Positions 290-47,365 of a DNA stretch of 49,130 nt are shown here, piece by piece. Numbering within the stretch: the stretch's first letter is position 1; every line of letters begins with the position of its first letter. The stretch lies in IMG/VR virus record IMGVR_UViG_3300047409_000236, positions 1 to 49,130 of that record. One strand, 5' to 3'. The DNA comes from a virus. Lineage: Duplodnaviria; Caudoviricetes. The notes below the pieces were generated by a model. The model saw nothing but the letters and a program-made list of their open reading frames with translations. It was not told where the DNA came from and searched no databases. Position numbers and translations under genes: made by a program.

Positions 290-967
290 CGAAGCCTTCA
301 AGCTGGCGATTTCGCCTTTGATCCAGCGAGCGATAGCCAGAACCTCGCCCGTGTCTCCCGCGACGTCGAGGCGCGCCATGGCGCCGTCGACAAGCGCCGC
401 AGTCCACGGGTTCAAGCTTTTCAGCATCCGCTCGCCCGCCGGGAGGCTGTAACCGCAAAGCTTCACACGGGACGCCACGGCGAGCACGAAGGGCAATTGG
501 CGAAGATCGTTCGCGTCAAACTTTTTGTTGGCCTCCGCCTTGGCCAGAACCCACGCCATGAGCGTAGTGAGCAAATCCTTGAAATTCGAGGCAAACGCAG
601 CCTGCAGCGCGCGGCGTTCGATCCGGCCATCTTCCATGCCGTTGACCAATTGGTGGAGCCCGGCGGTAACCGCGTCCCGCCACTGGTACTCATCCGTCCA
701 GAACGCATGGCAGAGTTCATGGAGAAGGTAGCCTGTCCAGCGGTCAAGCTCCTCCCGCGAAACACGTGTCGCGCCCGGCATGACCGGGAAATGCACAACC
801 GCGTCAATAGCGCCGTTCCAAGCGGTGTGATGCTTGATGCTCGCCGTTCCGGTCACGCTGTCGGCGACAGCATGGACGCTGCCAGCCTTGCGGCCGGCTA
901 GCTGGATGAACGCGACAAGATTGCTCTCAACCGCGTCAAGCGCGTCGGTTAGAAGGATCATTTGCAT
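1..967 (-). CDS. N-terminal part of a CobT-like HEXXH + vWA protein (continues at 49040-48016; about 663 aa in total)
   Basis: Hand translation from ATG 967 (RBS AGGAG): MQMILLTDALDAVESNL...GYLLHELCHAFWTD...VNGMEDGRIERR...SQPQPQ...EGEGEG. The frame is open to position 1 and in frame with the vWA ORF across the junction. Confidence 0.85.
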   Translation of the reverse strand, partial: MQMILLTDALDAVESNLVAFIQLAGRKAGSVHAVADSVTGTASIKHHTAWNGAIDAVVHFPVMPGATRVSREELDRWTGYLLHELCHAFWTDEYQWRDAVTAGLHQLVNGMEDGRIERRALQAAFASNFKDLLTTLMAWVLAKAEANKKFDANDLRQLPFVLAVASRVKLCGYSLPAGERMLKSLNPWTAALVDGAMARLDVAGDTGEVLAIARWIKGEIASLKASQPQPQPQPQPQPQPQPQPQPQPQPQPQPQPQEGEGEGEGEGVEGEGEGEGEGEGEGEGEGEGVEGEGVESEGEGEGEGEGEGEGGEGEGEGEGEGV

Positions 968-998
968 TTTTGTGTCTCCTGTTTGTGCGTCTTTGGTC

Positions 999-1050
999 AA
1001 GACGCTAGCGTCTTAAACGCGAAAAGCACGCCCGTCAAGGCGTGCTTTTC
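999..1050 (-). promoter_or_regulatory. Hairpin with embedded sigma70-like promoter and a 16-bp palindrome upstream of the HEXXH-vWA gene
   Basis: Hairpin GAAAAGCACGCC-cgtcaa-GGCGTGCTTTTC at 1021-1050. Minus strand reads TTGACG-17bp-TAAGAC. Perfect palindrome AAGACGCTAGCGTCTT at 999-1014. Confidence 0.6.
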
Positions 1051-1073
1051 ACTTGTCGCCTAGGGGCGGGCGA

Positions 1074-2558
1074 TCATTCCACGGGCGTGAACGTCCCGGC
1101 CGGAACGCTTTCGCCCGGCTTCACGCTCACGGGAACCGGCGCGCCAGACATCTCGGCATCGAAGGCCTTCGCGTCGAAATTGGCGCGGATGTGCTGGCGA
1201 AGCGCCTCGCGCTCGGCGTCCGGAAGGCGCGAAAGCATGGTCACGTCAAACGCGACATCCGGGCGGAAACCATCGTCCACGGCCCGCACGAACGCGACCA
1301 TGCGGCGAAGGCTCATGGGGCGGTTTTCGAAACCGACGAGCTTGCGCACGCCGCCAATGAACGCCACGACACGATCACAAGCCGGGCGCGGCGCGCCCGT
1401 GTGATTTGCCAACGCTTGCGCCTCAAGTTCCGCCGGTAGGTAATCGACGACAAGCATCCGCGCCATACGGTCGATGAGCGCCGCATTGCCTTGGACCGTG
1501 CCAACGTAGAGCCCGGTTTCGTCGCCGTAGCCTCTGGTGTTGTCCGCGCAAACGAAAATCACGCCGTCAGCGACGGAGACACGCTCGCCCGTGGCGTGGA
1601 TGGTCAGCACGCGGCTGGACAGGAGCGTTTGCAGGAGCGCCAGCATCCCGGCCGGCGCGAACATGATTTCGTCCAAGAGGATCACGTTGCCGGCGCGCCG
1701 GATGGCTTGCGTGAGCACGCCATCCGCCCAGACCATGCCGCCGGCGCCGTCAAGCACGTACTGGCCAATCAAGTCTGTCGCCTCGACGGCGCGGTTAAAC
1801 GATATCGCCGTGAACGGGCGTCCCGTCCGCGCGGCGTATTGCTCCGGCATGGACGACTTGCCGCCACCCGCCGGGCCAGCGAGCCAGACGTTTCCGCCGC
1901 GTTCCGTCGCGGTCACCAGAAGCGCCAGCGTTGCCGGATCGATCACGTACATGGGATCACGTACCGGCGCGTCCGCCGCATCCCAGAGCGCTACCGGAAA
2001 CGACGCTTGCGCATGGCGCGGCGCGCCAAACACTTTTCCGAACGTGCTCGCGCCGGCTCGCTTCGCCGCCGGCAGTCGCTTGGCCACGGGCCGGGAGACG
2101 GCGCTGCCGTTCGCCGCAACCGGTACTTCAATCTCGACAATCCGCTCAATTTCCACGGCCGGCTTAAGCGCCGCCTCGACAATCGGCGCCAGCGCGCTCT
2201 GCACGGCTGACAGAAGCTTGTCGCTCACAAACGGGCGCAACGGATCAAGCACGCTGTCGACCATGGTTGAGCCGGCCGGCGCCTCGCCTTCCGGAGCCTC
2301 TGCTTTCGCTTTCATTTCGGTGTCTCCCGTTTCGACCGCGTCGACCGTTCCGGCGCGGCGCGCCGCGTGGCGTTCCATGATGGCTTGGACGTCGCTTTCC
2401 ACGCCAAGCGCCGTAATCGCCCGGATGATTAGCTCGCTGGTCATGTCGCGGGAAGCAAAGCCGCCGTTCGCTTGCCGGAAAGCCTCGAAACCCGGATGCC
2501 TCCGCAGCATGGCCCGCACGTCCGCCCGTTCCTCGGCCGCAAAAGTGTAGGAAATCAT
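1074..2558 (-). CDS. MoxR/CobS-like AAA+ ATPase (AAA_5 type)
   Basis: Walker A GPAGGGKS, Walker B ILLDE, ALIDR arginine finger, SLRR sensor 2; adjacent to a vWA gene. Confidence 0.88.
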   Translation of the reverse strand: MISYTFAAEERADVRAMLRRHPGFEAFRQANGGFASRDMTSELIIRAITALGVESDVQAIMERHAARRAGTVDAVETGDTEMKAKAEAPEGEAPAGSTMVDSVLDPLRPFVSDKLLSAVQSALAPIVEAALKPAVEIERIVEIEVPVAANGSAVSRPVAKRLPAAKRAGASTFGKVFGAPRHAQASFPVALWDAADAPVRDPMYVIDPATLALLVTATERGGNVWLAGPAGGGKSSMPEQYAARTGRPFTAISFNRAVEATDLIGQYVLDGAGGMVWADGVLTQAIRRAGNVILLDEIMFAPAGMLALLQTLLSSRVLTIHATGERVSVADGVIFVCADNTRGYGDETGLYVGTVQGNAALIDRMARMLVVDYLPAELEAQALANHTGAPRPACDRVVAFIGGVRKLVGFENRPMSLRRMVAFVRAVDDGFRPDVAFDVTMLSRLPDAEREALRQHIRANFDAKAFDAEMSGAPVPVSVKPGESVPAGTFTPVE

Positions 2559-2627
2559 TGTTCTGCCTCATGTTTTTCGTGTTTGGGCGTTTGGTCCCGC
2601 CCGCCGGCCACCTCGGCCGGTATGTCT

Positions 2628-2656
2628 CCCTTAGGTGATTTTCGCGGACCATGCAA
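2628..2656 (-). promoter_or_regulatory. Putative sigma70 promoter for the AAA gene
   Basis: Minus strand TTGCAT-17bp-TAAGGG, about 70 bp upstream of ATG 2558. Confidence 0.4.
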
Positions 2657-2704
2657 GCGGATTTGTGTCTCGTCCCGACAGGAGACGAGACGAAAGCACG
2701 CGGC

Positions 2705-2898
2705 CGGGAGACACGGGAGACACGGGAGACACGGGAGACACGGGAGACACGGGAGACACGCGCCCGGCGCTCAAAGGCGCCGAAGCGCCGGAGCGCCGAA
2801 GCGCCGGAGCGCCGGAGCGCCGGAGCGCCGGAGCGCCGGAGCGCCGAAGCGCCGGAGCGCCGAAGCGCCGGGAGACCGGGAGACCGGGAGAGACCGGG
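2705..2898 (+). repeat. Composite tandem array: (CGGGAGACA)x6, (GCGCCGRA)x12, (AGACCGGG)x3
   Basis: 9-mer at 2705-2758, 8-mer at 2777-2872, imperfect 8-mer at 2873-2898; read directly. Confidence 0.95.
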
Positions 2899-2965
2899 CG
2901 CGGCACGCGCAGGCCGAAGGCCGGCGCGCGCCGCACACCGCGCGCGCGGCGTAGGGCACGTCAGG

Positions 2966-3108
2966 CGCGCATCACGTCTAAAATAAAGGCCATAATGGAA
3001 AAATCCGGACGCCCGAACGGTTTGAGCCCGGCTCGCCCGACGCGCGCGGGATAAGAGCACGCATGACGCGCGTCACGTCTAAAATAAGACCGATAATGGA
3101 AAAATCCG
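2966..3108 (+). repeat. Pair of 42-bp AT-rich direct repeats, 101-bp period
   Basis: 2966-3007 and 3067-3108, 37/42 identical; core TCACGTCTAAAATAA-N5-ATAATGGAAAAATCCG. Confidence 0.9.
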
Positions 3109-3109
3109 A

Positions 3110-3409
3110 TCAGCTGAACGGTGGAGCGGTCAAGGTCGCGAGCCTTCGCGCTGCCTTGGCTTCCGCCTCATGCTCTACATTGCGGAGCCTTACCATCTCT
3201 GTGAAGAGCGCATCCGCGATCTCAATAGCGTCCTTCGCCAGTTTCCCCGCGTCCCCCCGATAACCGGAATGCGCCAGCATCCCCTGCATCGCTGCCGTAG
3301 CCACCGGCAGAAGCGGCCCCCAGCTTCCATGGTCGAGGATCGTCGCGAGGCCATTCCCGTCCTCATCGAACAGCGCGCCCTCCAGAAGCTCCTGCAAGTC
3401 CTTGTCCAT
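3110..3409 (-). CDS. Hypothetical phage protein
   Basis: MDKDLQELLEG...ATAAMQGMLA...; start chosen at ATG 3409 after a purine-rich RBS. Confidence 0.6.
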   Translation of the reverse strand: MDKDLQELLEGALFDEDGNGLATILDHGSWGPLLPVATAAMQGMLAHSGYRGDAGKLAKDAIEIADALFTEMVRLRNVEHEAEAKAARRLATLTAPPFS

Positions 3410-3526
3410 CGAACTACCCCTTGTCTCTCCGACGCCCCACCCGGAACAGACCATCTGTCCCGCTGTCGGCACGGCGATGTCTCTAACTAGTGATTTTCAC
3501 TTATGTCTCTCACTTCCGACCCTTGG

Positions 3527-3613
3527 CACCAATGTCACCTCGTGCGGGTGATCGTACCAATGAAGAAGATATCTTTCTTTCTTACTGATCATGCCCCCGA
3601 GGTGACATTGGTG
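3527..3613. other. Long imperfect palindrome; candidate replication origin
   Basis: Perfect 16-bp arms CACCAATGTCACCTCG and CGAGGTGACATTGGTG around an AT-rich centre AAGATATCTT, abutting the primase stop codon. Confidence 0.5.
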
Positions 3614-6145
3614 TCAGAGCGGCCCTTTTTCCGCTTTCTTCGTGATTTCAGCTATGACATTTTCACACATGTGAGTGTATTCCACATATTCCGCACTGAA
3701 TTTTTGCGCCACCTCGGCATTCAGAAACCATGCCCGATTGGTGTGATCCTCGATCTCCGGCACGATCCAGCCGTTGGCTTGGAACACCAGCACTGCCGAT
3801 TGGAACGTCCGCATGTCCATTCCACGCGCCGCTTGGCAGGTCCGGTCAACATCGCGCTTGGTGATTTTCACCTTACCACCCTTCGCCAACCGAATAAACG
3901 CGGCAGCCAGCGCCTGCTGGTCCTCGGCCCAGCCCTTGTTGATGCTGGCGTAGAAGATGTAGGCGTGCTTCAGCACGAAGCCCTCCATCACCAGCAAGGC
4001 CCGGTCCATTGTACTTTCGGGGATGTCGGCAGCCCAGTTGCCCATGGCGATGTCCATCAGGTGCAGGATCAGGGCGACGGCATTGAGCGTCCGCTCCTGC
4101 TTGCCGAGGAAGCTGCCGAAGCTTTCCGACGGCTCCCTGATCCGGGCGGCGACCGTCATCTTGTCGGCGAATACCCTGCGGACCTGCGCCGCGCCGGGAG
4201 ACAGGCCATATGTCTCCACCGGCAGCCGGTCGATGGTCTCGATGAGCTGCTCGAACGGGGATGAGACGACCCTCACGTTGTCGTCGTCCGGCTTGGCCGG
4301 AGCCATCATCACCGGGATGAAGCGCTGCAGCAGGCCGTCGCTGTCCAGCCGGCCCATCTCGGCGAGCCGTCTTGGCTGCACGGCTCCGGAGATCGAGCAC
4401 GACAGGTTGCCGACGATGCGCGCCGCGCCCTTGGCGCGGTCCTGCCGGTACGGGCCGCCGTCGTGCGCCTTGATGAACACGGAGCGGTCCTGCGCGCTGC
4501 CCTTGCCGCCGCCGCCGTACTTGTCCATCGCCCCGATCCAGCCGGAAAGCTCATCCCTGAAAAGACCGGCACCGCAGTCCTGCCCGGCCAGCACCTCGCA
4601 CAGCGCCTCCGTCGTCACGTCGTTGACCACGCGGCGGCGAGCTGGCGGCACCGCAGCCTCGGCGTCCTTCTGCGTCATTCCACCGAGCACCAGCGTGTCG
4701 ACGTTGAACTTGCGCCGCGTCCAGTCGCGTTGGTCCAGCCGCCGCACGATGGCCTCGATCTCGCGGATCGGCACCGACTTGCGCGTCGCCGGGTCGCCCG
4801 TCAGCATCGCCCACAGCAGCGGAGACACCATGTAGGAGCCGTGCGGCTTGGGCTTCACCTTGGTGCGGTGGTCGGCGACCGTCGAGGTAGCCATCATCGC
4901 CATCATGGCGAAGGCCGAGACATCGCAGCCGGAAGACGCCGCGTTGGTCGTCACCCAGTCGTGCGCCGGCTTGGGCAGGACGACCACCGGGAAATTCGGG
5001 CCGCCCGACTGCTCCCACGGGTTCCATTCCGACATCTTGCTGTGCAGGCTTCCGGCCCCGGCCATGCCCGGCTCGTCGGGGATCACGCCCAACGGCGCTT
5101 GGTCGTTGGCGATCATCTGCTTGATCCTGCCGACGATGTCGCTGTCCTCGCCATGGATGCCGATGAGGATTTTGCGCAGCGAGCCGAGGTCGTTCTTGTG
5201 GTCCTCCGGCAGCGTGTCCCAGACCTTTTCGGCCTCGCCGTCGCGGATCGGCCCGTCGAAGGTCGCCGACCAGTCCAGCCAAGGTTCCTTGCCATCTTCG
5301 TCCAGCGTGTTCTTGACGGCGTGACAGACGCCGGTCCACTCGCCGCGCGGGAAGGCCTTCGCCGTGTTGGGGATGGCGTCGAGGATCGCCTTCATCGTCT
5401 CGACGCTGCATGTCTCCATCGACGCCTTGGCCTTGCCGGAGACATCGTCCGGGGCGTCGAGGTCGATGCCGAAGAGGGCAGCCAGCTTGTCGAGCGTGTA
5501 GACGACCGTCGGGTTGTAGTCCTCGAACACCATCTGGAAGCCGCCGCGCCCCGGCTTGGTGTTGATGCCGGAGGGGAGACGGAAGTAGTGGACGGCGTCG
5601 CCGCTGTCCTTGATCGTGTTCGCCAGCAGCGGATGCTTGCCGGCCAGCTTCAGGAAGCGCCGCCAGCGCGCATAGTCGAACACCGGGTGCAGGCGGAAGC
5701 CGTAGTGCCAGTTGCCCTTTGACGACTGGATGCGCCACGACCACGGCGGCGCGATGATCTCGAACAGGTCCTTGTCGGTTTTGGCCCCGGTCATCGACGC
5801 GGCGACGCCGCCGCCATGGATGATGCCGACGTCCTCGGCGACAAAGGCCAGCGCGCACAGGAAATTGCTGTTGCGGCGCAGGCTGCTCTCGCCCGGCTTG
5901 AGCATCGCGTCGGGCTTGATCGCCGCGCACGAGAAGTAATGCCCGGTGTCGGCGGCGAAGCCGTCGATGACGCCGGGCTTGTAGAACTGGCCTATCCACT
6001 GGCCGGGCTCATCGACGTTCCAGACCTGCACCACCCAAAGCGGATGACCGCGCGAAAGAGACAGTGCGAACTCTTCCGATGTGGGTAGGCGCGGCTTGTT
6101 GGTGGACCCTTGCGAAGTGCCTGAAGCTGATCTATTTTCTGACAT
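3614..6145 (-). CDS. Primase-helicase: RepB-type primase + PriCT-2 + DUF3987 P-loop domain
   Basis: FVAEDVG, IQSSKGNWHYGF and FRLPSGINTK (RepB primase); EWTGVCHAVK..WLDWS (PriCT-2); GDPATRKS, DVTTEAL, RDELSGW and DGLLQRF (DUF3987-like). Confidence 0.8.
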   Translation of the reverse strand: MSENRSASGTSQGSTNKPRLPTSEEFALSLSRGHPLWVVQVWNVDEPGQWIGQFYKPGVIDGFAADTGHYFSCAAIKPDAMLKPGESSLRRNSNFLCALAFVAEDVGIIHGGGVAASMTGAKTDKDLFEIIAPPWSWRIQSSKGNWHYGFRLHPVFDYARWRRFLKLAGKHPLLANTIKDSGDAVHYFRLPSGINTKPGRGGFQMVFEDYNPTVVYTLDKLAALFGIDLDAPDDVSGKAKASMETCSVETMKAILDAIPNTAKAFPRGEWTGVCHAVKNTLDEDGKEPWLDWSATFDGPIRDGEAEKVWDTLPEDHKNDLGSLRKILIGIHGEDSDIVGRIKQMIANDQAPLGVIPDEPGMAGAGSLHSKMSEWNPWEQSGGPNFPVVVLPKPAHDWVTTNAASSGCDVSAFAMMAMMATSTVADHRTKVKPKPHGSYMVSPLLWAMLTGDPATRKSVPIREIEAIVRRLDQRDWTRRKFNVDTLVLGGMTQKDAEAAVPPARRRVVNDVTTEALCEVLAGQDCGAGLFRDELSGWIGAMDKYGGGGKGSAQDRSVFIKAHDGGPYRQDRAKGAARIVGNLSCSISGAVQPRRLAEMGRLDSDGLLQRFIPVMMAPAKPDDDNVRVVSSPFEQLIETIDRLPVETYGLSPGAAQVRRVFADKMTVAARIREPSESFGSFLGKQERTLNAVALILHLMDIAMGNWAADIPESTMDRALLVMEGFVLKHAYIFYASINKGWAEDQQALAAAFIRLAKGGKVKITKRDVDRTCQAARGMDMRTFQSAVLVFQANGWIVPEIEDHTNRAWFLNAEVAQKFSAEYVEYTHMCENVIAEITKKAEKGPL

Positions 6146-6314: not shown

Positions 6315-6353
6315 AAGGCCCCCAGCGAGATCGTGTCTCCCGCTGGGGGCCTT
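6315..6353 (-). terminator. GC-rich hairpin downstream of the DNA polymerase gene
   Basis: AAGGCCCCCAGCG...CGCTGGGGGCCTT, 13-bp stem; contains TGTCTCC; short T run follows on the minus strand. Confidence 0.55.
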
Positions 6354-6437: not shown

Positions 6438-8444
6438 TCACTTCTTGCCGTAACGAAGCATCACTCCGCCCTCGCACGCCACCGGAAGCCCCCACGCCCA
6501 TGCCGGAAGCGTCTCGATGGCGGTCTTCATGCTGGTGACGTAGATGTCGGGGCCGGCTTCCCAGATCAGCTCGTCGTGGACCGACAGGATCAGCTCCGTG
6601 GCGAAGCCGCGCCTCTCGATCCGCCGCGCCGCCTCCGTCATCACGTCCCTCGCGACGGCTTGGGTGACGTTTTCCGCCAGCTTGGCGCCCCACGTCCGGA
6701 TCGGTGTCCATTTCTTGGTGGTCTGGTCGACGCCGTCGAAGACGATCTCGTCGCGGCCGGCCTGCGGGCTGGAGACCAGCCTTGGGTTCCGGTAGAACAG
6801 GTGCCGCCCCGACGGCAGCTGGATCGTCATCAGGGGGACGCCGTTCCCGCCGGTCTTGGCCAGCACCTTGATGCCTCGCCGGCAGGAGACAGTCACGCGA
6901 TACGTGATCGCGGTGTGCGCCGCCACGTCGAGTTCGCGCCAGAAGCCGGTGATGTGCATGTTGGCGTTGCGCCAGCTTTGCACGATGTGCTGGCTTTCGA
7001 GGGGAGAGACAGTGAGGCCGTAGCCCTTGGCGAGTTCGACGAACTTCTTCCAGCCTGTCCCGTAACCCAGACCCAAGACCACGACCTTTCCGGCGTCTCT
7101 GGTCGGAAGACCGAGCTTGTCCCGGGTGTAGGCGTAGACGTCGCGCCCCGACGCGAACTCGTCGAGGATGTCCTGCTGCCCGGCCAGCCACGCCAGCACC
7201 CGCGCCTCGATCTGGGCGAAGTCGAACACGACGAGCACCTTGCCGGCAGCCGGCACGATCGTCCCCCGCAGGCACCGGGCGATCACTTCGAGCGGTTCCC
7301 CCCACACCGTGCGGATCAGGTCCAGCGCATCTTCGGTGCTGTTCTTGGCGAAGGCGTGCTTGACGAAGTCGACCACCCGGTCGATGGGGATCGCCTTGGC
7401 CGGCCTCGGGAAGTTCTGCGGCTGGATCAGGCGTCCGCTCCAGCGGCCGGTGCGGCCGGCGCCATAATACTGGAGGACAAAGCGAACCCGTTCGTCGGCG
7501 TCGACCGAGGCCAGCATCGACTTGAGCTTCTTGACCGAGGACTTGGCCACGCGTTGACGTATGGACAGCACCTTGGAGACAGCGTCGGGCAGCTCCGCGT
7601 CGGCGGCTGTCTCCAGCGTCTCCGCGATGGTCTCCCTGCCGACGTCGTCCAAGGGGCAGCCATTGCCGGCCAGCCACTGGCGAAGCCTCTCGGTCTGGGT
7701 GCCGGGGGACGTGACCGCGCCAAGCGTGACGATCTCGCACTCGTTGTCGAGGCGCTTCGTCTCCATCTCGGCCAGCCGGATGAACCGCTCGACCAGATCG
7801 ATGTCGAGCCTGACGCCGCGCCGGTTGGCGTGCCAGTCCATTTCGGAGACGAGCTTCTCGTCGGGGAGAAGACGCGGGATGACCCTGCCGGTGGCGCGCT
7901 CGGCCGCCACGTCCCGCACGCAGTACAAGGCCAGCCTTTCCAGCATGTCGAGGCCGAGGACCGGGTCGAGGTGCCACCACGCGGCGGGGTTGGCGTAGCC
8001 GTCGGCCGCCGCCAGCGCCTTGTCGCGCGGCTTGCACATCTTCATCATCAGCCGGTGGCCGTCGGCGTCCTTGGTGGTCCGCAGGCCCATGGCGGGACCG
8101 GCGTCCGCCAGCGCGCCGGGATAGCCGGCGTGCAGCGACCTCTGCATCGTGCAGACGAACTGGCCGGGGTCGACCGGGATGCCGAACAGGTGTTCGAGGA
8201 TCGACATCTCGAAGGCGGTATTCCAAGCGTGGACCGTGCCGCCTCCAAGGATATGGTCGCGGATCGCCTGCGGCAGCTGGCGGTCGAACTTCTGCCAGCA
8301 GTGCCAGCGCACCGGCTCGTCGTCGAAGGCCCACGCCACGCAGAGCACCGTCGTCGAGGCGTGCCGGGCATAACGCGAGACGCCGGCCCGCTTCAGGTCG
8401 ACCGTGCTTGCGGTTTCAAAGTCCAAGTGGAGGGTCGGGCTCAT
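6438..8444 (-). CDS. polA: DNA polymerase family A with 3'-5' exonuclease domain
   Basis: ExoI LDFET; YYGAGRTGRWSG..QPQNFPR; motif A DFAQIEARV; motif B RDAGKVVVLGLGYG; motif C VHDE. Confidence 0.93.
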   Translation of the reverse strand: MSPTLHLDFETASTVDLKRAGVSRYARHASTTVLCVAWAFDDEPVRWHCWQKFDRQLPQAIRDHILGGGTVHAWNTAFEMSILEHLFGIPVDPGQFVCTMQRSLHAGYPGALADAGPAMGLRTTKDADGHRLMMKMCKPRDKALAAADGYANPAAWWHLDPVLGLDMLERLALYCVRDVAAERATGRVIPRLLPDEKLVSEMDWHANRRGVRLDIDLVERFIRLAEMETKRLDNECEIVTLGAVTSPGTQTERLRQWLAGNGCPLDDVGRETIAETLETAADAELPDAVSKVLSIRQRVAKSSVKKLKSMLASVDADERVRFVLQYYGAGRTGRWSGRLIQPQNFPRPAKAIPIDRVVDFVKHAFAKNSTEDALDLIRTVWGEPLEVIARCLRGTIVPAAGKVLVVFDFAQIEARVLAWLAGQQDILDEFASGRDVYAYTRDKLGLPTRDAGKVVVLGLGYGTGWKKFVELAKGYGLTVSPLESQHIVQSWRNANMHITGFWRELDVAAHTAITYRVTVSCRRGIKVLAKTGGNGVPLMTIQLPSGRHLFYRNPRLVSSPQAGRDEIVFDGVDQTTKKWTPIRTWGAKLAENVTQAVARDVMTEAARRIERRGFATELILSVHDELIWEAGPDIYVTSMKTAIETLPAWAWGLPVACEGGVMLRYGKK

Positions 8445-8950
8445 CGGAGGCAGGCTCCCAGCCCTTGAAGAGGGGACAGGTCGACGCCGAACCCGAACAG
8501 GGCGGACCCGTGGCTCGCGGCTTCCTGCCGGCGGTTCTCCCGCAGCACGCCAAAACGCAGCCGGGCTCGCACGAACAGCACCGAAGTACAGTGCGCAAGC
8601 GCTTCCTGAAAGGTGCGCGTCTCCGTGTGCGCCGGGATCAGCAGCACCACCTTGCGCCTCCAGCCCTCGGCGATGCAGCGGTCCACCCAGCGGCTCCGCG
8701 CCTCGCCGTAGGGTGGGTTGCAGAACACGGTCGGGAAGTCCCATGTCTCCCGGCAGCCGTCGGTCGGCAGCGCGTAGAAGTGCGCCGCCCGCGTCGGGTT
8801 GTCCGGCTCCGTGCAGGGGTCGAGGGCGATGCCGCCCAGCAGCTTCCTGACAGGCTCCAGCACGTAAGGCGGAGTGAGCATCGCCTGCCGGGCGTGGTGC
8901 TCAGGCCGTCGCCGCTTGGCGTTGTCGAAACGGTGGCTGGCATCCGTCAT
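8441..8950 (-). CDS. Phage Dam-like DNA N6-adenine methyltransferase
   Basis: TPP..LDPC, FCNPPY catalytic motif, LLIPAHTET, RLRF. Confidence 0.85.
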   Translation of the reverse strand: MTDASHRFDNAKRRRPEHHARQAMLTPPYVLEPVRKLLGGIALDPCTEPDNPTRAAHFYALPTDGCRETWDFPTVFCNPPYGEARSRWVDRCIAEGWRRKVVLLIPAHTETRTFQEALAHCTSVLFVRARLRFGVLRENRRQEAASHGSALFGFGVDLSPLQGLGACLR

Positions 8951-10475: not shown

Positions 10476-10745
10476 ATGCCGGGCCGCTACACCCACGTCA
10501 AACCCCGCAACGAGCGGCATTATCCCGTCTACAAGTACCGGGAGATGCTCGCGGCGATAGGCTCCAACGCCACCATTCAGGACGTCATCAGGAGCTACGG
10601 CTACGAACAACCCACGCTGGGGGTCATCCAAGGCTGGCGCCGGCGCAACTCCATCCCGTCGACGTGGCTGCCGATCCTGATGCACTGGCTCGGCAAGCGC
10701 GGGCTTCTCGACACGCCGGACCAGCTGCTCAAAGAGCCATTCTAG
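10476..10745 (+). CDS. Cro/CI-like HTH DNA-binding protein
   Basis: VIQGWRRRNSIPSTW resembles the Cro-like 'WxxRxSIP' signature; located next to the divergent promoter. Confidence 0.55.
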   Translation: MPGRYTHVKPRNERHYPVYKYREMLAAIGSNATIQDVIRSYGYEQPTLGVIQGWRRRNSIPSTWLPILMHWLGKRGLLDTPDQLLKEPF

Positions 10746-12158: not shown

Positions 12159-13504
12159 TGGACTTGTTCCCTTATCAGAGAGACACCGTCGCTGCCGTGG
12201 TGGCGCGGGCCAAGGTCGGTGAGCCGACCTACATCGGCCACGAGATGGGCTTGGGCAAGACCCCCATCGCGATCGCCGTGGCGAAGGAGCGGAAGGCCAA
12301 GCGCGTCGGCGTCTTCTGCCCGCCGGTCGCCAAGCTGACATGGGAAAAAGAACTTCGCCGCTGGTGGCCGGGCGTGCCGGTCGTCACCGTCGAGAAGTGG
12401 AGCGACATCCTCAAGCTCAAGGACGACGGCGTCTTCATCGTCGCCTACAGCCTGCTGTCGGGCTCGAAGTCCGGCGGCTACGACTACACCACCAGCCTGC
12501 AGAACACGCTCAAGGCGCTGCCGTTTGACATGAGCGTGCTCGACGAGGCGCACGCGCTCAAGAACTCTTCCGCGATCCGCACCAAGGCGGTCCTGAAGAC
12601 GCTCAGGCCCTATCTCGGCCTGTGTCTCCCGATGAGCGGCACGCCGGCTCCCAACCATCAGGGCGAGCTGTTCCCGATCCTGCACGCGATCTTCCCCAAG
12701 GCGATCGAGGGCGCCTTCGGCAAGACGATGAAGCAGTACGAGTTCGAGAACGTCTACTGCCGCGTCGTCAACAAGCGCTTCAACGGGCGCATGGTCCGCG
12801 TCATCGAGGGCTCGCAGAACATCGAGACGCTGCGCGGCAAGCTCGCCGGCTTCATGGTCCGCAAGACCAAGCGCGCCGTGCTTCCGGACCTGCCGGACAT
12901 GGCGTTCGACATCTACCCTGTCTCCGCCCCGAATGCGCCGCCGTGGCGTGGCGCCCACGACTGGCAGGACATGAACGAAGACGAGTTCGTCGATGCGTTC
13001 GAGGACATGCACGTCGCCACGATGCGGCAGCAGCTTGGGGTATCCAAAGTCCCCGGCGCGGTCGAGGCGATCAGCGAGTACCTCGAAGGGTGCCGGCGCA
13101 AGGTGGTTGTGTTCGCGCATCACACCGAGGTGATCAGGGGACTGGTGGACGGGCTGGTCCACTACGGTCCGGTGCTGATCGACGGCTCTGTCTCCAAGGC
13201 CGGCCGCGAGATCGCTGTCTCCCGCTTCCTCGACGACCCGAAGTGCCGGGTGTTCATCGGCCAGACCGTCGCCGCCGGCACGTCGATCACGCTGGTGGGA
13301 CCCAACAACGACGTCTCCGACGTCTTCTTCGTGGAGAGCGACTTCAACCCCGGCAACAACGTGCAGGCTGCCTCGCGCATCCATCGCATCGGCCAGAAGA
13401 ACGCCGTCCAAGTGTGGTTCCTGACCGCGCACGGTACCTACGACGAGAGAATACAGGACATCACCAGCCGCAAGGCGCATGACTTCCGAGAGTTGTTCGG
13501 ATGA
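12158..13504 (+). CDS. SNF2-family (DEAH) helicase
   Basis: EMGLGKT, LDEAH, SGTP, QAASRIHRIGQ. Confidence 0.92.
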   Translation: MDLFPYQRDTVAAVVARAKVGEPTYIGHEMGLGKTPIAIAVAKERKAKRVGVFCPPVAKLTWEKELRRWWPGVPVVTVEKWSDILKLKDDGVFIVAYSLLSGSKSGGYDYTTSLQNTLKALPFDMSVLDEAHALKNSSAIRTKAVLKTLRPYLGLCLPMSGTPAPNHQGELFPILHAIFPKAIEGAFGKTMKQYEFENVYCRVVNKRFNGRMVRVIEGSQNIETLRGKLAGFMVRKTKRAVLPDLPDMAFDIYPVSAPNAPPWRGAHDWQDMNEDEFVDAFEDMHVATMRQQLGVSKVPGAVEAISEYLEGCRRKVVVFAHHTEVIRGLVDGLVHYGPVLIDGSVSKAGREIAVSRFLDDPKCRVFIGQTVAAGTSITLVGPNNDVSDVFFVESDFNPGNNVQAASRIHRIGQKNAVQVWFLTAHGTYDERIQDITSRKAHDFRELFG

Positions 13505-14055
13505 CCCGGCCGGAACCGCTCATGTTGCCTCGAACCATAGTCGCTGATCCGCCGTGGTGGCCCTCGCTGCACAAGAACACGGTAGGGCGTAGCGCGGGAC
13601 CGTATCGAGCCGGGCCGCAACGCTATTACTCGTTAATGGAGACGACTGAGATTTGCGCTATCAAGCCTGCCAGCGCGCCAAAGGCCCATTTGTGGCTATG
13701 GGTGATCAATCAGCACGTTGATTGGGGCTATCAGGTCGCCCGTGCGTGGGGCTTTGAGCCTCAGCAGATGGTTACTTGGTGCAAGCCCGGATTTGGCACC
13801 GGGCAGTTTCAATCTAACTCAGAGGCCGTTCTGGTCTGTCGCAAGGGTGGCCCGGTCAAGAATGCCTTTGGCAAAACTTCGGGCACTTGGTTTGAATGGC
13901 CTCGCGGCCGTCACTCGCAAAAGCCGTCTGAATTTTTCGACCTAGTAGAGCGCGTTAGCCCCGGCCCTTATCTTGAGCTGTTCGCGCGCGAAACGCGGAT
14001 CGGGTGGTCAAGCTGGGGAAATGAAGTCCCTCAATTCGCAATGGCAGCCGAATGA
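13501..14055 (+). CDS. MT-A70 family N6-adenine methyltransferase
   Basis: IVADPPW, HLWLW, WGF..TWCK, HSQKP, YLELFAR..WGNE. Confidence 0.9.
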   Translation: MTRPEPLMLPRTIVADPPWWPSLHKNTVGRSAGPYRAGPQRYYSLMETTEICAIKPASAPKAHLWLWVINQHVDWGYQVARAWGFEPQQMVTWCKPGFGTGQFQSNSEAVLVCRKGGPVKNAFGKTSGTWFEWPRGRHSQKPSEFFDLVERVSPGPYLELFARETRIGWSSWGNEVPQFAMAAE

Positions 14056-39794: not shown

Positions 39795-39811
39795 GGACGC
39801 TGCTCCTTTGA

Positions 39812-40477
39812 TCAGGGTTCGACCACCAGTCCGTTGACGACAACGCGCTGCCCGGCCGGAACAGTCAACACAATCTCGCCGGACGGCGAGACCGGCGCGC
39901 CTGTCTCCGCCTCCAGCAGCGCCCACAGGAACTGCTCGTGGTAGGCGGCGATCTCGGTGTCCTTGTCGTTGCCGTTGATAATTTGTCTGGCGTTTACCGG
40001 GTCGTCCTTAGGGTCTTCGGGGTCGTCGTTGAAATACTGGCCGAGCTTCCTGCCCGTGAACCATCCCTCGGCCATTCCCCGGAACATGACCCTTGCGCCG
40101 ATGAGGCTGTCGAGCGCCAGTTCAGGGTGTTCAACCAGATCGCGATCGTCGATGAGGCCGAGGGCCGCGCTCGCATTGCGGTAGTTCTCCTCGTGGGTCA
40201 GCTGGACGTAGCCGCGACCGATGTAGGGCCAATAAGACTTGCCCTGCAGATACGCGTCCGATCCCTGTTCGGTGATCGGCCACATACGATAGCCGGTCTC
40301 CCAATAGGTCGTTGCCAGCATATAGGCGAGCCAGCGCGCGTCGCTCATCGGGGTGCCGGTCTGGTCGCCTTCCCACAGCGCGAGAATGACGTTCTGCCCA
40401 TCAACTTGTTGTTGACTGAGCGCGCCCTCGAACAGCACGTCGCGGACATACGAGAAGTATTTGTCGCGGTCGATCAT
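39812..40477 (-). CDS. Glycoside hydrolase family 19 endolysin
   Basis: LAYMLATTYWETG, YIGRGYVQLTHEENY, ARQIING. Confidence 0.88.
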   Translation of the reverse strand: MIDRDKYFSYVRDVLFEGALSQQQVDGQNVILALWEGDQTGTPMSDARWLAYMLATTYWETGYRMWPITEQGSDAYLQGKSYWPYIGRGYVQLTHEENYRNASAALGLIDDRDLVEHPELALDSLIGARVMFRGMAEGWFTGRKLGQYFNDDPEDPKDDPVNARQIINGNDKDTEIAAYHEQFLWALLEAETGAPVSPSGEIVLTVPAGQRVVVNGLVVEP

Positions 40478-40779
40478 CAGTCGCCCTCCTGACCGAAGAC
40501 GGCTTCGCCGCGCCGTTCGAGCGCCGCCTCCAGATCGGCAATGCGCGCCTCGGCCTGTTGTGTGCGATCTTCTGACGTATGGAGGGCTGTCTTGCAGATG
40601 GAATAGGCCCGCTGCGCCTCGGCGATGCGCGCCTCGGCCTTCTCTGCGCGCTTGCATGTGTCGATCACCTGCCACTTGTACTTGTCGGCCAATTCCTCGG
40701 CACGCTCGGCACGTTTGCGCTGCTCGTCGCAATCGGCGCAGCGCTCTGGCGGACGTTCAACGGCGTGCGTGTCGATCAT
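40477..40779 (-). CDS. Small coiled-coil protein
   Basis: Repeated AEARIA heptads; CxxC motif. Confidence 0.55.
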   Translation of the reverse strand: MIDTHAVERPPERCADCDEQRKRAERAEELADKYKWQVIDTCKRAEKAEARIAEAQRAYSICKTALHTSEDRTQQAEARIADLEAALERRGEAVFGQEGD

Positions 40780-40792
40780 GTCAGGTCTCTTA

Positions 40793-40972
40793 TCATATCC
40801 GGCCGAGCAGCAGCAGGATCAGCAGCACGACGAGGACGACGCCGATGATGCCGCCGCCGCCCCAGCCATAGCCGTAGTACGGACCCCTTCCGCCCCACGA
40901 GCCGAGGCCGCCGACGACAAGCAGCACGACGAGCACGACGAGGATCACGTAGATGAGGGTCGATGCCGGCAT
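40793..40972 (-). CDS. DUF3309-like two-TM small membrane protein (not in ORF track)
   Basis: MPASTLIYVILVVLVVLLVVGGLGSWGGRGPYYGYGWGGGGIIGVVLVVLLILLLLGRI; RBS AGGAGG. Confidence 0.75.
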   Translation of the reverse strand: MPASTLIYVILVVLVVLLVVGGLGSWGGRGPYYGYGWGGGGIIGVVLVVLLILLLLGRI

Positions 40973-40982
40973 GGCCAGCCTC

Positions 40983-41333
40983 CTATTGCGATTTGCCTTT
41001 TGGCAGCGGTATGTCGGGCGGCGGCAGGGGCGAAGGCGGCGGTTCCCTTGCCGCCTCGTAGGCCTTGGCGACCATCGCCATCAGCGTGTCGAACTCCCGA
41101 TCGTGCGTGTGCAGGACCTGCGTGATCTGGGCCTGTTGCACGTTCAAAAGGTTCTCCAGATGCTGCTGCTGGCCGACGATCAGCACGTTCAAAAAGTAGA
41201 CCGCAGCGCCGATACCGACCAGATTAAGCAAGAGGACACCGAGCGCGACCGGCGTCAGCCGATTGGTGATGGCCTCGACACCATGGCCGACCAGCTGCGT
41301 TGCCGTCATCGGCAGCTGCGTATCATGCACCAT
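40983..41333 (-). CDS. Single-TM protein, holin candidate
   Basis: VALGVLLLNLVGIGAAVYFL plus coiled coil; upstream of the endolysin. Confidence 0.45.
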   Translation of the reverse strand: MVHDTQLPMTATQLVGHGVEAITNRLTPVALGVLLLNLVGIGAAVYFLNVLIVGQQQHLENLLNVQQAQITQVLHTHDREFDTLMAMVAKAYEAAREPPPSPLPPPDIPLPKGKSQ

Positions 41334-41523
41334 CTGCCGGTTCTTTGATCGCCTTCAGGCCGTGCTTCTCAAGGAACTGCGGCCAAGGCGGAACATCACT
41401 GTCGGCGGCCTGCACCCACCAGATCGAGCCGTCGTCGCCGGTCGCCTTGATGACGCGGCTGCCGTCAAGTTCGTCGACCACCCATTCCGCGCTGACAAAT
41501 TCCATCACATCCTCGCGTTGCAA
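41323..41523 (-). CDS. Small tail-fibre-associated protein
   Basis: Follows a fibre gene; acidic, about 60 aa. Confidence 0.45.
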   Translation of the reverse strand: MQREDVMEFVSAEWVVDELDGSRVIKATGDDGSIWWVQAADSDVPPWPQFLEKHGLKAIKEPADGA

Positions 41524-42626
41524 GTGATGGTCGAAGAGAAATTACCCGCCGCGCTCGCGTTCGCCACACGACCCTCGCGCACGATGTTCGGAGCATACCC
41601 CTGAACCAGAGTTCCGACCGCTGCCGGGAAGCTAGTGCCGCTCAGGTTAGCGCCACTCAACGTGGCGGATTGAGTGCGCGGCACGACCGGCAGGTAGCCG
41701 AGCACATAATACGCCACAGCGTTAGTGACGGTAGCGTTGTAGAAAACACCTGTCTGCTGCCAGTAGCGCTGGCACGCGATCAACTCAGCCGCCTCGTCGG
41801 GCATCTGCCACGGCGGCGGCAGGCCGGTGTTGTTGCGGTCGAGATAGAGGCCGACATCGAACAATTCGAAGACATTGCCGGCGGTCGCCATGCCGTTGCT
41901 GTTGGACGGCGTGCCGAAGGACAAGCCGGCCTGCCAGCCTGCTACGCCTTGGTAGGTGGAGCCGGTCGCCAGCACGATGTTCAGATAGATGCCGACGCCA
42001 GTATCGGTCAGCCATGCCCCGGTCGTGTCGCCGGGAATGACGAGCGTCTGTGTCGTGTCGGTGTTGGCCTGCCCGGCAGCGATGGTGAAGTTGGCGAGAT
42101 AGGTGCGGTTGAGCGCGGAATTGAACAGGCTGGCCGAATAGGTGCCGGCCGGTCCCTTGAAGCCGAAGCGCAGGATGACCTGCTTTGCACCTGCAGCGCC
42201 CCAGCCGAAATCGGCGACGCGAATGCCCTCCAGCGGTTGCCGGAAGACCAGATAATCGCCGGCTGCCAACGCTGCCTTGGCTACCGCCACAACGATCCGA
42301 GAGCGGTTCAGCGAGCCGTTTGGCGTCGCGCCCTGCACGCGCTGCGCGTTCACCGTGCCGGGGGAAACTGCGGAAAGCGAACGCCACTGATCCGCCGAGT
42401 GGAAGTCCAACGAAGACATGGACGCCGACCCGGTGTTGCCGTTCTCCTGACTGATCTGCATCGCAGGATTGACGATGCGGTTGCGGCTCTCGGCAGTCAG
42501 CGGAACCGGCGGGCTGGTGCTGCCGGTGACCTGTATCCACTTCGCGCCGTCCCACTGCCACGACGGGCCGCCGGCAGGCGAGTAGATCGCGCCGACAGTC
42601 GGGGAGGCGGGGAAGTCAAACGCCAT
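41505..42626 (-). CDS. Tail fibre / receptor-binding protein
   Basis: MAFDFPASPTVG..WQWDGAKW anchor, RNRIVNPAMQISQ, ELIACQRYWQ. Confidence 0.75.
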   Translation of the reverse strand: MAFDFPASPTVGAIYSPAGGPSWQWDGAKWIQVTGSTSPPVPLTAESRNRIVNPAMQISQENGNTGSASMSSLDFHSADQWRSLSAVSPGTVNAQRVQGATPNGSLNRSRIVVAVAKAALAAGDYLVFRQPLEGIRVADFGWGAAGAKQVILRFGFKGPAGTYSASLFNSALNRTYLANFTIAAGQANTDTTQTLVIPGDTTGAWLTDTGVGIYLNIVLATGSTYQGVAGWQAGLSFGTPSNSNGMATAGNVFELFDVGLYLDRNNTGLPPPWQMPDEAAELIACQRYWQQTGVFYNATVTNAVAYYVLGYLPVVPRTQSATLSGANLSGTSFPAAVGTLVQGYAPNIVREGRVANASAAGNFSSTITCNARM

Positions 42627-42819
42627 GGAACACCTTCCCGTCGTAGCGGTAACCGACCACCGCCTGACCCGTTTCCCCGGTGATCTCGACGTTGAGCCAC
42701 GTCACGATGTCAGGCACCGTCCAGACGATGTTCCACATCTCCTCGGCCTCGGCGATCTCGACGACCGTGTTGTCGTCGGGCTGGTCGGGATTGCTGAGAA
42801 CGCGCGCCCACTCGCTCAT
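42616..42819 (-). CDS. Putative tail fibre assembly chaperone
   Basis: MSEWARV..VVEI..VGYRYDGKVF; follows a fibre gene. Confidence 0.55.
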   Translation of the reverse strand: MSEWARVLSNPDQPDDNTVVEIAEAEEMWNIVWTVPDIVTWLNVEITGETGQAVVGYRYDGKVFHGV

Positions 42820-44264
42820 CCGAAGATGGTTACCTCCGTCCATGCGTTCAGCCACGTCCCGGTGCCGGCAGCCACCCATCCGAGCGGCGATATGTAGTGG
42901 CCGCCCTCGGGAAAAGCGTCGGAGCCGCCGAGCCATTGCGGCATCTGCAATGCGCTGCCGCTGGCGGTGAAACGCGCCGCTCGATAGTTGGGCATTATCC
43001 CGACTGCATTGGAGCGACCGAAGTTCGCGTAGCAATCACCGGCGGCAGACTGGTACGGGGACGACGAGCAAGCATACTGCGTATAACGCCCTCCGATCTG
43101 GGCAAAGAACACCCGCAACGTCGAACTCAACTCAATCGGGGTCGTTGAGGTGGTAGTCGGACCGACAGCCGCCGTGCGGAAGCTCTTCGGCTTCGGGTTG
43201 AACCAGCTGGCCGTCGTCACGACGTTCGTCGTCGGCCACGCCCCGGCGTTCAGCACGTTGACCATGCCGACAAAAGTGCGCGTCGGGTCGCCCGACTTGA
43301 CGTACCAGCCGCTGGCGTCGACGACGTAGGCGGTCGCCGAGAACTCCAGCGTCATCGTCGCGCCCGCCATGTAGGCGTAGATGTACACTGCACCGGTTGG
43401 CAGTCCTGTCGGCGCAAGCGTGACGCCCCCGGCAGGGATCGGCTGGTTGACGCCGTTGATCCACAGCAGGTTGCCCTGATACGGCAGCAGCGTCAGGTTG
43501 GTGTACATGTCGAGGTAGCACTGGCCGAGACGCACCCCGCCGGCTGACGCCGAGTTGATCTGCACCCACTGCTGCGTGTTGCCGTCGTCGTACCAGATGT
43601 ACAGATTGCCGGTGCTCGACTGCCACCACAGCTGGCCCGGCTGCGGCGACGACGGCGCATTGTCGGAGATCGTCGTGCCGGGGGGCACCGACACCGGGCT
43701 CCAGACAAGGTTCTTCCTGACGTACTGGGTGCCGTCGTTGGGCGCGTCGGGGCTGATGTAGCCCTGCGCCTTGACGAACGCCGTCGTGGCGATCGACTGG
43801 TCGTTGTCGGTCGTGGCCGGCGTCTGCGCGCGGGCGTCGCCGGTGAACGTCGGGCTGTTGATCGGCGCCAGCCCCGCGACCACCGAATTGAACCCGGCCT
43901 GCGAGACGAAATAGGTGCTGTCGTTGCCGTCGAGGAGGTCGGCGTCGAGGCCCGAACCGGCGCCGTCGTTGGCGAAGGTCAGCACCGCGTCCCAGCTGGC
44001 CGGGGCGAAGGCTCCGGCGGAGACAGGGACACGAGCCCGGTAAAGCTGGCCGCCCTGCACGACGAAGTCGCCGGCGACGTAGTCGGCAGCGGTGGAGAAG
44101 AACCTGACGCCGACGAGGTCGACAGGATTTTTCGCGGCGTCGATGACACCGAGCTGCCGGTCGGGGAACGAGGTGTAGAGTTCGCCTGCCTCGCGCGCCC
44201 CGGCGACCGGGCGCTGGCCCTTCACCGAGGACCGCAGGACCTGCATACGATTGGGTGCCGGCAT
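42816..44264 (-). CDS. Tail fibre protein
   Basis: GSGLDADLLDG, APINSPTFTG..IATTAFV, foldon-like DAPNDG motif, GQLWW..LYIWY. Confidence 0.82.
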   Translation of the reverse strand: MPAPNRMQVLRSSVKGQRPVAGAREAGELYTSFPDRQLGVIDAAKNPVDLVGVRFFSTAADYVAGDFVVQGGQLYRARVPVSAGAFAPASWDAVLTFANDGAGSGLDADLLDGNDSTYFVSQAGFNSVVAGLAPINSPTFTGDARAQTPATTDNDQSIATTAFVKAQGYISPDAPNDGTQYVRKNLVWSPVSVPPGTTISDNAPSSPQPGQLWWQSSTGNLYIWYDDGNTQQWVQINSASAGGVRLGQCYLDMYTNLTLLPYQGNLLWINGVNQPIPAGGVTLAPTGLPTGAVYIYAYMAGATMTLEFSATAYVVDASGWYVKSGDPTRTFVGMVNVLNAGAWPTTNVVTTASWFNPKPKSFRTAAVGPTTTSTTPIELSSTLRVFFAQIGGRYTQYACSSSPYQSAAGDCYANFGRSNAVGIMPNYRAARFTASGSALQMPQWLGGSDAFPEGGHYISPLGWVAAGTGTWLNAWTEVTIFG

Positions 44265-44310
44265 CTGCCGTCTCGTCTCCTCTATCTAGAGGCCATGGAA
44301 CCAGTACGCG

Positions 44311-46203: not shown

Positions 46204-46259
46204 TCGGGAGTTGTGCTCCGTGGATTTGGCCGGAGGGTACTTTCGGCAGCCCCTGAAGT

Positions 46260-46538
46260 CTACGCCTCTTGGTCGGGCAGCTCGTCTTCCTTGGACCTGA
46301 GCCTGCCAAGCTCCTGCTCAAGCTCGGTCGAGGTCATCTCGACCAGCGGTTTCTCGCTTTGGCGCTGGGGGGACTGGAGGCGTCCGATGTCGCCGATGCT
46401 CTCCAAGAGGGTTCTCGCTGCGGCAGCCCTTGCGGCAGGAGGAGCGTTGGCGTCCTCGGAGACATCGATCAGCGCATTGGTGGCGATGACCCGGATGCGA
46501 TCCTTCGGTGGGGTTTCCTTGACGGGTTTCTTGGTCAT
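46260..46538 (-). CDS. Putative terminase small subunit
   Basis: 92 aa; ARAAAARTLLE..EMTSTELEQEL; first gene of the late arm. Confidence 0.5.
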   Translation of the reverse strand: MTKKPVKETPPKDRIRVIATNALIDVSEDANAPPAARAAAARTLLESIGDIGRLQSPQRQSEKPLVEMTSTELEQELGRLRSKEDELPDQEA

Positions 46539-46546
46539 TCGCGGCT

Positions 46547-46618
46547 AACCACTTAAAATCCCACAAATTTTAGAACTCAGGCAACCACTTAAAATCCCAC
46601 AAATTTTAGAACTCAGGC
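46547..46618 (+). repeat. Perfect 36-bp tandem duplication
   Basis: AACCACTTAAAATCCCACAAATTTTAGAACTCAGGC x2. Confidence 0.95.
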
Positions 46619-46703
46619 AACGCTCCCGTTCGCGCCGTCGCGCGGGGTCGGGCCGGGGGCCGGGTCGCGGAACCGGGGCACAACCGGTTGGAAACCCTAA
46701 TGA

Positions 46704-46716
46704 AATCAAAGACTTA
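46704..46716 (+). promoter_or_regulatory. IHF consensus site
   Basis: AATCAA-AGAC-TTA matches WATCAANNNNTTR exactly. Confidence 0.55.
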
Positions 46717-46827
46717 GCCTGTCTCCTGCCTCTTGGGGCAACAACGGGGCAACGAGACACAGAGACAGAGGCTTTGTGTCTCCTTTGCGACATAGGCTAA
46801 TGTCCATGTCTCCGCCACGTATTCCCG

Positions 46828-47286
46828 CTAACCCTTTGTTTTTGCTCGTGTTCTAGCCGTCAGTGCTACCCTTAGCGCATCCGGCGCCAGCGCCCGGTTA
46901 CGCCACGCTTCCACAAGCTTGCCGCGATCAATCGGAGACAGCGGAGGCACGGGAGACACGGGAGGCAACGGTTCGCTGGCGCCGATCTTGGCAAGGCCTT
47001 GGCGCACCGCGTGTCTCCCGGCAATAGCGCTAACCGAACCTTCCGGCGCTCGCGCCATCGCCGCTCTGTGGCCACCATGCAATCGGCAATGATCGCTCCC
47101 GCGCAAGGCCGCGTTGCCGCAACGCTCGCCCGTCGCCTTGGCCACGGCCACGCATTGCCGCCGTCCGCTTTCGGGCGTGAACGTTCCGAACGGCGTGCGC
47201 TTGGCCAGCATGGCGCTTGCGTCCGGCGCCTTTGGCCCATGGCCACGCGGCAGGAGCCAATTCGGCCGGTTTTTGTTCGCGCCCAT
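46828..47286 (-). CDS. HGGxSTG-like Cys/His (zinc-binding) protein
   Basis: QCVAVAKATGERCGNAALRGSDHCRLHGG. Confidence 0.7.
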   Translation of the reverse strand: MGANKNRPNWLLPRGHGPKAPDASAMLAKRTPFGTFTPESGRRQCVAVAKATGERCGNAALRGSDHCRLHGGHRAAMARAPEGSVSAIAGRHAVRQGLAKIGASEPLPPVSPVPPLSPIDRGKLVEAWRNRALAPDALRVALTARTRAKTKG

Positions 47287-47332
47287 GGCCGGACGGTTTA
47301 ACGCGCCAGCGCTCCGGCGCCAAGGCCGGGAC

Positions 47333-47365
47333 GCGGGAGACACGCGGGAGACACGCGGGAGACAC
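47333..47365 (+). repeat. (GCGGGAGACAC)x3 tandem array
   Basis: Read directly. Confidence 0.9.

Follow-up and report, generated by a model that had tools for sequence, protein, structure and literature searches.

The DNA analyzed here, called the window throughout in its full length of 49,130 nucleotides (IMG/VR record IMGVR_UViG_3300047409_000236), is a circularly permuted podovirus genome, opened within the stretch of a CobT-like gene that encodes its Glu-Gly repeat. It carries 89 dispersed copies of the heptamer GGAGACA, a word that is real and phage-specific and that, among related phages, comes and goes with a CobS/CobT-like gene pair. The pair is probably functionally involved with the word. 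More specifically, comparison of the sequences leaves us with an even chance that GGAGACA is a self-tag that would be read by the CobS-like ATPase, parking a CobS/CobT remodeller-protease against host defence proteins.

GGAGACA is the top 7-mer of the window, with 49 copies on the plus and 40 on the minus strand, compared with 5.0 or 9.2 copies expected from order-2 or order-3 Markov models, respectively; the extended forms GGAGACAC and GGAGACAG occur 43 and 29 times. The first-pass annotation, which had counted about 85 copies used about equally in both orientations, was right on both points; several of its coordinates are off by one (the correct positions are 1575, 2321, 5438, 12623 and 46720). 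It had conceded that the enrichment might disappear once codon usage was taken into account; the enrichment survives, as 64 copies lie in coding DNA compared with 3.9 ± 1.9 in 300 synonymous-codon shuffles (maximum 10) and 4.7 ± 2.0 in 200 context-keeping shuffles. The word is used at 64 of the 181 places where the encoded protein permits it, compared with 0–20 of 92–204 places for ten one-letter neighbours, and coding copies are read in sense (31) and antisense (33). Thr is encoded by ACA, in one of the codon pairs that the first-pass annotation had called uncommon, in 20 of 33 cases after GGAG and in 38 of 831 elsewhere. The base 3' of the word is A in just one of the 89 copies.

The mean spacing over both strands is about 550 bp, in agreement with the earlier estimate, and has no regularity (coefficient of variation with clusters collapsed 0.85, compared with 0.84 under random placement); because the spacing is random, its description as Okazaki-like applies to the mean only. 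Two tandem arrays and a hairpin reported before were recovered (Table 1), with 0 exact matches to the tandem motif array among viral contigs. About ten copies had been said to precede start codons, and we find 7 copies 3–11 nt upstream of called starts and, by eye, about 3 further ones preceding an ATG. The longest motif-free gap (39902-44019, 4.1 kb) takes in the lysis and tail-fibre genes. Across genomes the word is scarce in fibre genes (0.88/kb), as recent gene swapping would lead one to expect.

To place the word in a family, relatives were collected as capsid- and terminase-anchored contigs, of which 21 were motif-positive and 16 negative, with labels set by eye before protein clustering. 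The closest annotated relatives are Mae-Yong1326-1 (major capsid protein, MCP, 60%) and RHph_N65 (47%), and a nucleotide search with the first 25 kb of the window matched no annotated phage. The same word is found in G038, G039 and G040 (108 copies in the last), other relatives have words of their own (GAGACAC, GGAGACC, CGGACAC, CGGGCAC, TGACAC, AGACAC, GGACAA, GGGACCA, CCGGGAC and AGGACA), and some have no such word; the relatives' words hold up under codon-aware nulls. Of about 40 sites in orthologous genes, the window shares 9 with G039 and 2 with G040, and G039 and G040 share 8, at near-equal counts (41, 39 and 43). Sites thus turn over at steady counts; word density is conserved and position is not. 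In a Brucella anthropi prophage, the word AGACAG occurs 45 times compared with 6.7 expected; at ~2.1/kb it is ~10-fold denser than in host DNA (50 copies in 223 kb, 0.22/kb), with sharp edges. This prophage is split over two contigs, which we presume to belong together. A host-level repeat of the HIP1 or DUS type would be enriched in host DNA as well, which for the word of this one prophage is not the case in B. anthropi. The idea of a phage-specific cis-acting system or self mark is strengthened by these results: relatives have the same or different enriched words, the word ends at the prophage edges and density is kept.

The first-pass annotation did not consider the CobS/CobT pair. Protein clustering places CobS-like proteins in 12 and CobT-like proteins in 13 of the 21 motif-positive contigs and neither in any of the 16 negatives, and six-frame hidden Markov model searches agree that the pair is absent from the negatives. 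Among 27 near-complete genomes (26 with at least 38 kb and the Brucella prophage; 12 shorter contigs excluded), 13 have pair and motif, none the pair only, one the motif only and 13 neither, where G010 is scored as pair-bearing from cobT alone, located at the contig end; Fisher's test, which ignores kinship, gives p = 7e-7. On a tree of MCP and TerL (26 rows, G044 dropped), the two states are interspersed, with 7 and 6 changes, and the motif-less G041, G002 and G004 fall among the GGAGACA phages. The motif-only exception, G034, keeps a truncated cobS in which the N-terminal domain is followed by unrelated sequence; that domain resembles those of GGGACCA phages, and the motif of G034 is weaker (42/15.4, compared with 64/15.4 and 76/17.1). 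In the B. anthropi prophage, the word was called first, and the search then revealed full-length cobS and cobT. Across 13 genomes, the non-coding stretches upstream of cobS have the highest word density (67 copies in 11.1 kb, 6.0/kb), compared with 2.9/kb in other intergenic DNA, 1.9/kb in other coding sequences and 0.5/kb in cobT.

We extended the comparison to 53 CobS-anchored loci under the codon null. Clear words are ACAGCTG (4 near-identical loci), AGACAG (2), GGGACCA (2–3) and CCGGGAC (1), joined by GTTTAAA or ATTTAAA (5 clear, 4 weaker) and GGAGCCC or AGGGCCC (2); the TTTAAA loci belong to two separate AAA clades with what looks by eye like a common N-terminal type. We count it in favour of a CobS-read tag that different CobS clades have different words (ACAGCTG; GTTTAAA/ATTTAAA). 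Under the same null, L206, L221, L224, L249, L250, L253 and most distant loci have no word, and a strong word was found in 0 of 7 40-kb samples of named phages (T4-like, SSU5-like, Gordonia). Avoidance of 6-bp palindromes is stronger in phages with the pair than in the others (12 vs 13 genomes, p = 0.006 uncorrected), as would be expected under heavy restriction pressure but not behind a full shield. In the literature covered, which leaves out most subscription journals, no publication connects the pair with a DNA word.

The CobS-like protein is of the MoxR type, with an AAA_5 domain, Walker A and B motifs and a NorQ/CbbQ fold; its model has a predicted local distance difference test score of 88, and Foldseek matches it to NorQ/CbbQ with TM scores of 0.85–0.90 by target. 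Residues 1–70 form an N-terminal domain separate from the AAA part, with an invariant Arg and a FASR loop common to all four GGAGACA phages. The CobT-like gene spans the window ends and encodes HExxH and VWA domains joined by an acidic linker, so that the ATPase gene has the adjacent VWA partner with N-terminal HExxH that marks viral CobS/CobT-like pairs. Long CGCCCT and GGCTGG repeats (window 1-300 and 48999-49130) make up the coding sequence of this linker, whose true length is uncertain because several related contigs break at the same place. Neither cobN nor any other cob gene is present among the 50 window open reading frames scanned.

A profile of the N-terminal domain found 191 proteins. 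Among 146 new ones examined, 48 extend to the AAA part, 90 are short (many fragment-like) and 8 are long without it, the last mostly repeats; P0156 combines the domain with an HTH_17-like region in one protein (E 6e-5, under the cutoff). G004, a phage without cobST, encodes a stand-alone 82-aa homolog of the domain (L089:5900-6127). Elsewhere, the CobS N-termini of SSU5-like phages weakly match a ROS/MucR-like zinc finger, and that of one cyanophage gives a weak helix-turn-helix (HTH) match (L298, L300, L303, L304). Phage CobS proteins seem to exchange N-terminal modules.

In the mechanism that we propose, the word is maintained for density rather than position at the level of double-stranded DNA, and, by correlation, goes with cobS-cobT beside a genome-end region, being densest upstream of cobS. 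The ~65-aa N-terminal domain on its flexible linker would bind the word, and six copies of the domain per hexamer could provide avidity. The arrays might nucleate loading or serve cobS autoregulation. In the weakest step, the ATPase would turn its HExxH-VWA partner on proteins bound to tagged DNA, which would be cleared away or cut; given the analogy with IncC Vcrx089/090, restriction or silencing proteins are the most plausible targets. More tentatively, the family may represent a methylation-free self/non-self system, in which a swappable MoxR reader domain is matched to a phage-specific word and directs an ATP-driven protease-remodeller exclusively to DNA so tagged, and in which clades possess their own word-reader pairs (GGAGACA, GGGACCA, AGACAG, ACAGCTG, GTTTAAA).

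Several results weigh against the domain as reader and against the strength of the association. Fold searches with the N-terminal domain gave no clear match, and its SAP/Rho_N matches are weak. Motif distance correlates with distance in the AAA part at 0.40 and in the N-terminal domain at 0.29; the partial correlation between motif and domain is 0.06 (p = 0.23), and in 12 genomes motif distance is accounted for more fully by distance in capsid and terminase than by the domain. Motif identity thus tracks relatedness no less than it tracks the CobS N-terminal domain. In so short a domain, specificity may rest on few residues, although the data do not show that. G004, with its stand-alone domain, has nine GGGAGACA iterons at an origin-like element and no dispersed word, which is unexplained. 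When kinship is removed by independent pairs, 4 are the same, 0 opposite and 1 tied (p = 0.125). Finally, the motif labels are not cleanly split by a single score, as G017 (CGCCGGC) and G019 (CTCGAGC) match some positives.

We consider it unlikely that the word has another reader, be it a stoperator-like Cro-like protein, CobT or a host factor, with cobST co-occurring through a shared lifestyle. Motif identity does track relatedness at least as closely as it tracks the CobS domain, and 13 of the 21 motif-positive contigs have a Cro-like gene, whose recognition helices are alike among the GGAGACA phages. Cro-like genes are, however, also found in the motif-less G035, G045 and G046, the helix of G045 being like that of the window, and none was clustered in G018, G029 and G031; moreover, the sites are non-palindromic and not oriented with transcription, and host DNA lacks the word in the single testable case (B. 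anthropi). The first-pass annotation had listed a phage HTH protein among its candidates, of which the Cro-like protein stays a minor rival. The HTH protein at 18454 was rejected, having a 56% homolog in the motif-less G041 and no match in G038 or G039, as was the TerS-like gene, with 62% homologs in the motif-less G041 and G047.

We also regard as quite unlikely that the word belongs to the CobST module and has a physical rather than an anti-defence job, such as genome compaction or an entry ratchet through multivalent CobS binding, or an autoregulatory titration sink. The co-occurrence of pair and motif and the density upstream of cobS would be explained equally, and the long acidic linker of CobT and the place of the pair at a genome end would suit such a job. 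The genome of Mae-Yong1326-1 carries a terminal repeat of 366 bp, with cobS-cobT close to the left end (PMC9503304). We locate the pair 870 bp from that end and find 5 copies of the phage's own word in the terminal repeat, and by analogy the late cluster of the window may mark its genome-end region. Close relatives with similar virion genes nevertheless do without the pair (the MCP of G041 is 82% identical), the sites lack polarity and the conserved HExxH points to proteolysis.

The candidate preferred by the first-pass annotation, a priming or origin-binding site of the primase-helicase, has become improbable. It can draw on the G004 iterons, which follow the primase gene and contain GGAGACA, on similar GAC-core iterons in other motif-less phages (GGGTGACA, CCTGACAC, CTCGACA), on the grouping of the four GGAGACA phages in a single primase-helicase cluster and on sites on both strands. 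The word does not, however, follow the class of priming domain. The priming domains of 24 genomes form two classes with 100% support; G040 belongs to one and the window, G038 and G039 to the other, and motif-less phages occur in both. The primase N-terminal domain was rejected as reader since the same word goes with two unrelated priming classes. Iterons after the primase-helicase gene are unlike the dispersed word in 10 of 13 motif-positive genomes checked, 3 having no cluster (G017, G020 and part of G045 were left out of this comparison), and the four GGAGACA phages have four different iterons. The C-terminal 130 aa of the window primase match G034 (GGGACC) and not G038–G040; the iterons and the C-terminus were likewise rejected as reader, and the random spacing also argues against a priming role. 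The inverted repeat after the primase gene is likely the replication origin and holds no GGAGACA; there are 0 copies in window 3400-3760, where other iterons are present.

That the word is an orphan methylase target or a by-product of codon or Shine-Dalgarno bias is highly improbable: the window does carry two methylase genes, and the GGAG core is like a ribosome-binding site and precedes starts in the 7 copies mentioned, but the Dam-like gene, rejected as the cause, is confined to the window among related contigs, MT-A70, also rejected, is absent in the near-complete same-motif genomes of G039 and G040 and present in the motif-less G035, G005 and G041, and the 16-fold excess over codon-aware nulls, with half of the coding copies antisense, refutes the codon part.

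Table 1. Positions of the word, the CobS/CobT-like pair and other features in the window
Feature	Position	Strand	Details
CobS-like MoxR AAA+ ATPase	1074..2558	-	494 aa; Pfam AAA_5 E 1.6e-18; phrog_249 E 1.9e-46
CobS N-terminal four-helix domain	2349..2558	-	~65-70 aa, disordered linker; candidate motif reader (putative)
CobT-like gene, 5' part	1..961	-	zincin-like HExxH (HELCH) domain followed by Pro-Gln and Glu-Gly repeats
CobT-like gene, 3' part	48016..49130	-	acidic repeat and CobT_C/VWA; CobT_C E 1.3e-8; phrog_1576, phrog_17276
Dispersed GGAGACA(B) sites	352..47364	both orientations	n = 89; 64 in coding DNA
Motif cluster upstream of cobS	2623..2760		copy at 2623 (-); 6-copy CGGGAGACA array 2705-2760 (+), 6.2 x 9 bp
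Late cluster, non-coding, in the interval between cobT and late genes	46720..47365		6 copies 46720-47018; 3-copy array 47331-47365 (3.2 x 11 bp)
Hairpin holding one motif copy, in the polA-primase interval	6315..6353	-	z -4.9
Primase-helicase	3614..6145	-	PriCT-2 + DUF3987; 843 aa (protein database)
Perfect 16-bp inverted repeat, right after primase gene	3527..3613		arms 3527-3542 / 3598-3613; AT-rich core
Dam-like methylase	8441..8881	-	no homolog in 38 related contigs
MT-A70 methylase	13501..14055	+	
Cro-like small protein, minor rival reader	10476..10745	+	label by eye; no PHROG match

Some further observations concern the window and its relatives. G040 (L185:3718-6045) and the window (3614-6145) differ by a swap of priming domains of unrelated classes on related primase-helicase genes. 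In most family members an iteron element directly follows the primase-helicase stop, with a distinct repeat per phage (window 3527-3613; L089:12063-12262), and these elements make a good set for studying origin-reader co-evolution. CCAGG/CCTGG is nearly missing from the window (1-49130; 1 compared with 183 expected), which points to a CCWGG-cutting host system; the avoidance is shared by G008, G038, G040 and G048 and is independent of the GGAGACA motif, because it is absent in G039 and G041. Near the pair lie an AT-rich direct repeat of 36 bp that precedes the TerS-like gene (46547-46621), a ~42-bp direct repeat with a TATAAT-like core (2966-3110) and tandem arrays of a 38-bp unit (47699-47852) and an 8-bp unit (2777-2898); scanning for promoters around cobS and the late genes yielded nothing better than 9-of-12 matches. 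Mae-Yong1326-1 (L083) has a GC content of 72%, and a related prophage was found in an alphaproteobacterium, for which reasons its reported Microcystis host appears doubtful.

Many tailed viruses carry CobS/CobT-like pairs, which annotations describe as vitamin-B12 genes or assembly chaperones. A word that comes and goes with the pair offers a concrete substrate for this common, unexplained gene pair, and the module is experimentally tractable: it comes down to a single 70-aa domain and a single 7-mer, relatives supply natural swaps, and Mae-Yong1326-1 is in culture. If the self-tag reading is true, phage DNA would be self-marked free of base modification, and the CobS domains would make up a small family of short-word DNA readers.

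Among known systems, the viral cobST pair has the same two-gene architecture. The passages available on viral cobST and MoxR AAA+ proteins propose roles in cobalamin synthesis (PMC8651126) and virion assembly (PMC7824862) and, including those of PMC9503304, mention no DNA motif. The window shares with it the AAA_5 ATPase and the HExxH-linker-VWA partner, the Mae-Yong1326-1 pair being a direct homolog (40%, AAA part), and differs in the separate N-terminal domain of its CobS and in the genome-wide words that go with the pair. IncC Vcrx089/090, the closest relative with a tested function, is described, in passages of PMC7498323 and PMC11602122, as protecting against type I restriction-modification on entry. 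IncC/SXT Vcrx089-Vcrx090 resembles the window system in having an AAA_5 ATPase that is carried by mobile DNA and acts when this enters a new host. The IncC ATPase adjoining bet/exo, from its position presumably the Vcrx089 ortholog, is 30% identical to the window AAA part; at 322 aa it lacks the N-terminal domain and its neighbour lacks HExxH, whereas the window ATPase has an HExxH-VWA partner and the pair lies outside an hde operon context (ssb, bet, exo), with no bet/exo next to it. The 41-kb IncC stretch holds no strong word. On the IncC backbone (L305:25713-27509), an HExxH-VWA gene lies four genes downstream of the AAA ATPase, beyond bet and exo.

The clients of NorQ/NorD and CbbQ/CbbO are enzymes, and we know of no DNA-targeting extension or peptidase domain in these remodellers; in AAA fold and in the logic of a VWA adaptor they (PDB 9qh4, 9qh9, 6l1q) are like the window pair. 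The origin-like element of the window and of most relatives has its counterpart elsewhere and, being local and made of other repeats, is distinct from the dispersed motif. In P4/SaPI-type origins, iterons follow the primase-helicase gene in the same way. Chi, KOPS, DUS, matS, the mycobacteriophage stoperators and the NrS-1 priming site are dispersed cis-site systems, and the window word is like them a short, non-palindromic word over-represented in coding DNA, with a dedicated reader protein proposed. Unlike them, it has no polarity of replication or transcription: its orientation is mixed along the window with no strand switch, in contrast to Chi and KOPS, and, in contrast to stoperators, its coding copies are about equally sense and antisense, with 64 of 89 copies inside coding sequences. 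It also changes between close relatives, and its candidate reader is a MoxR remodeller.

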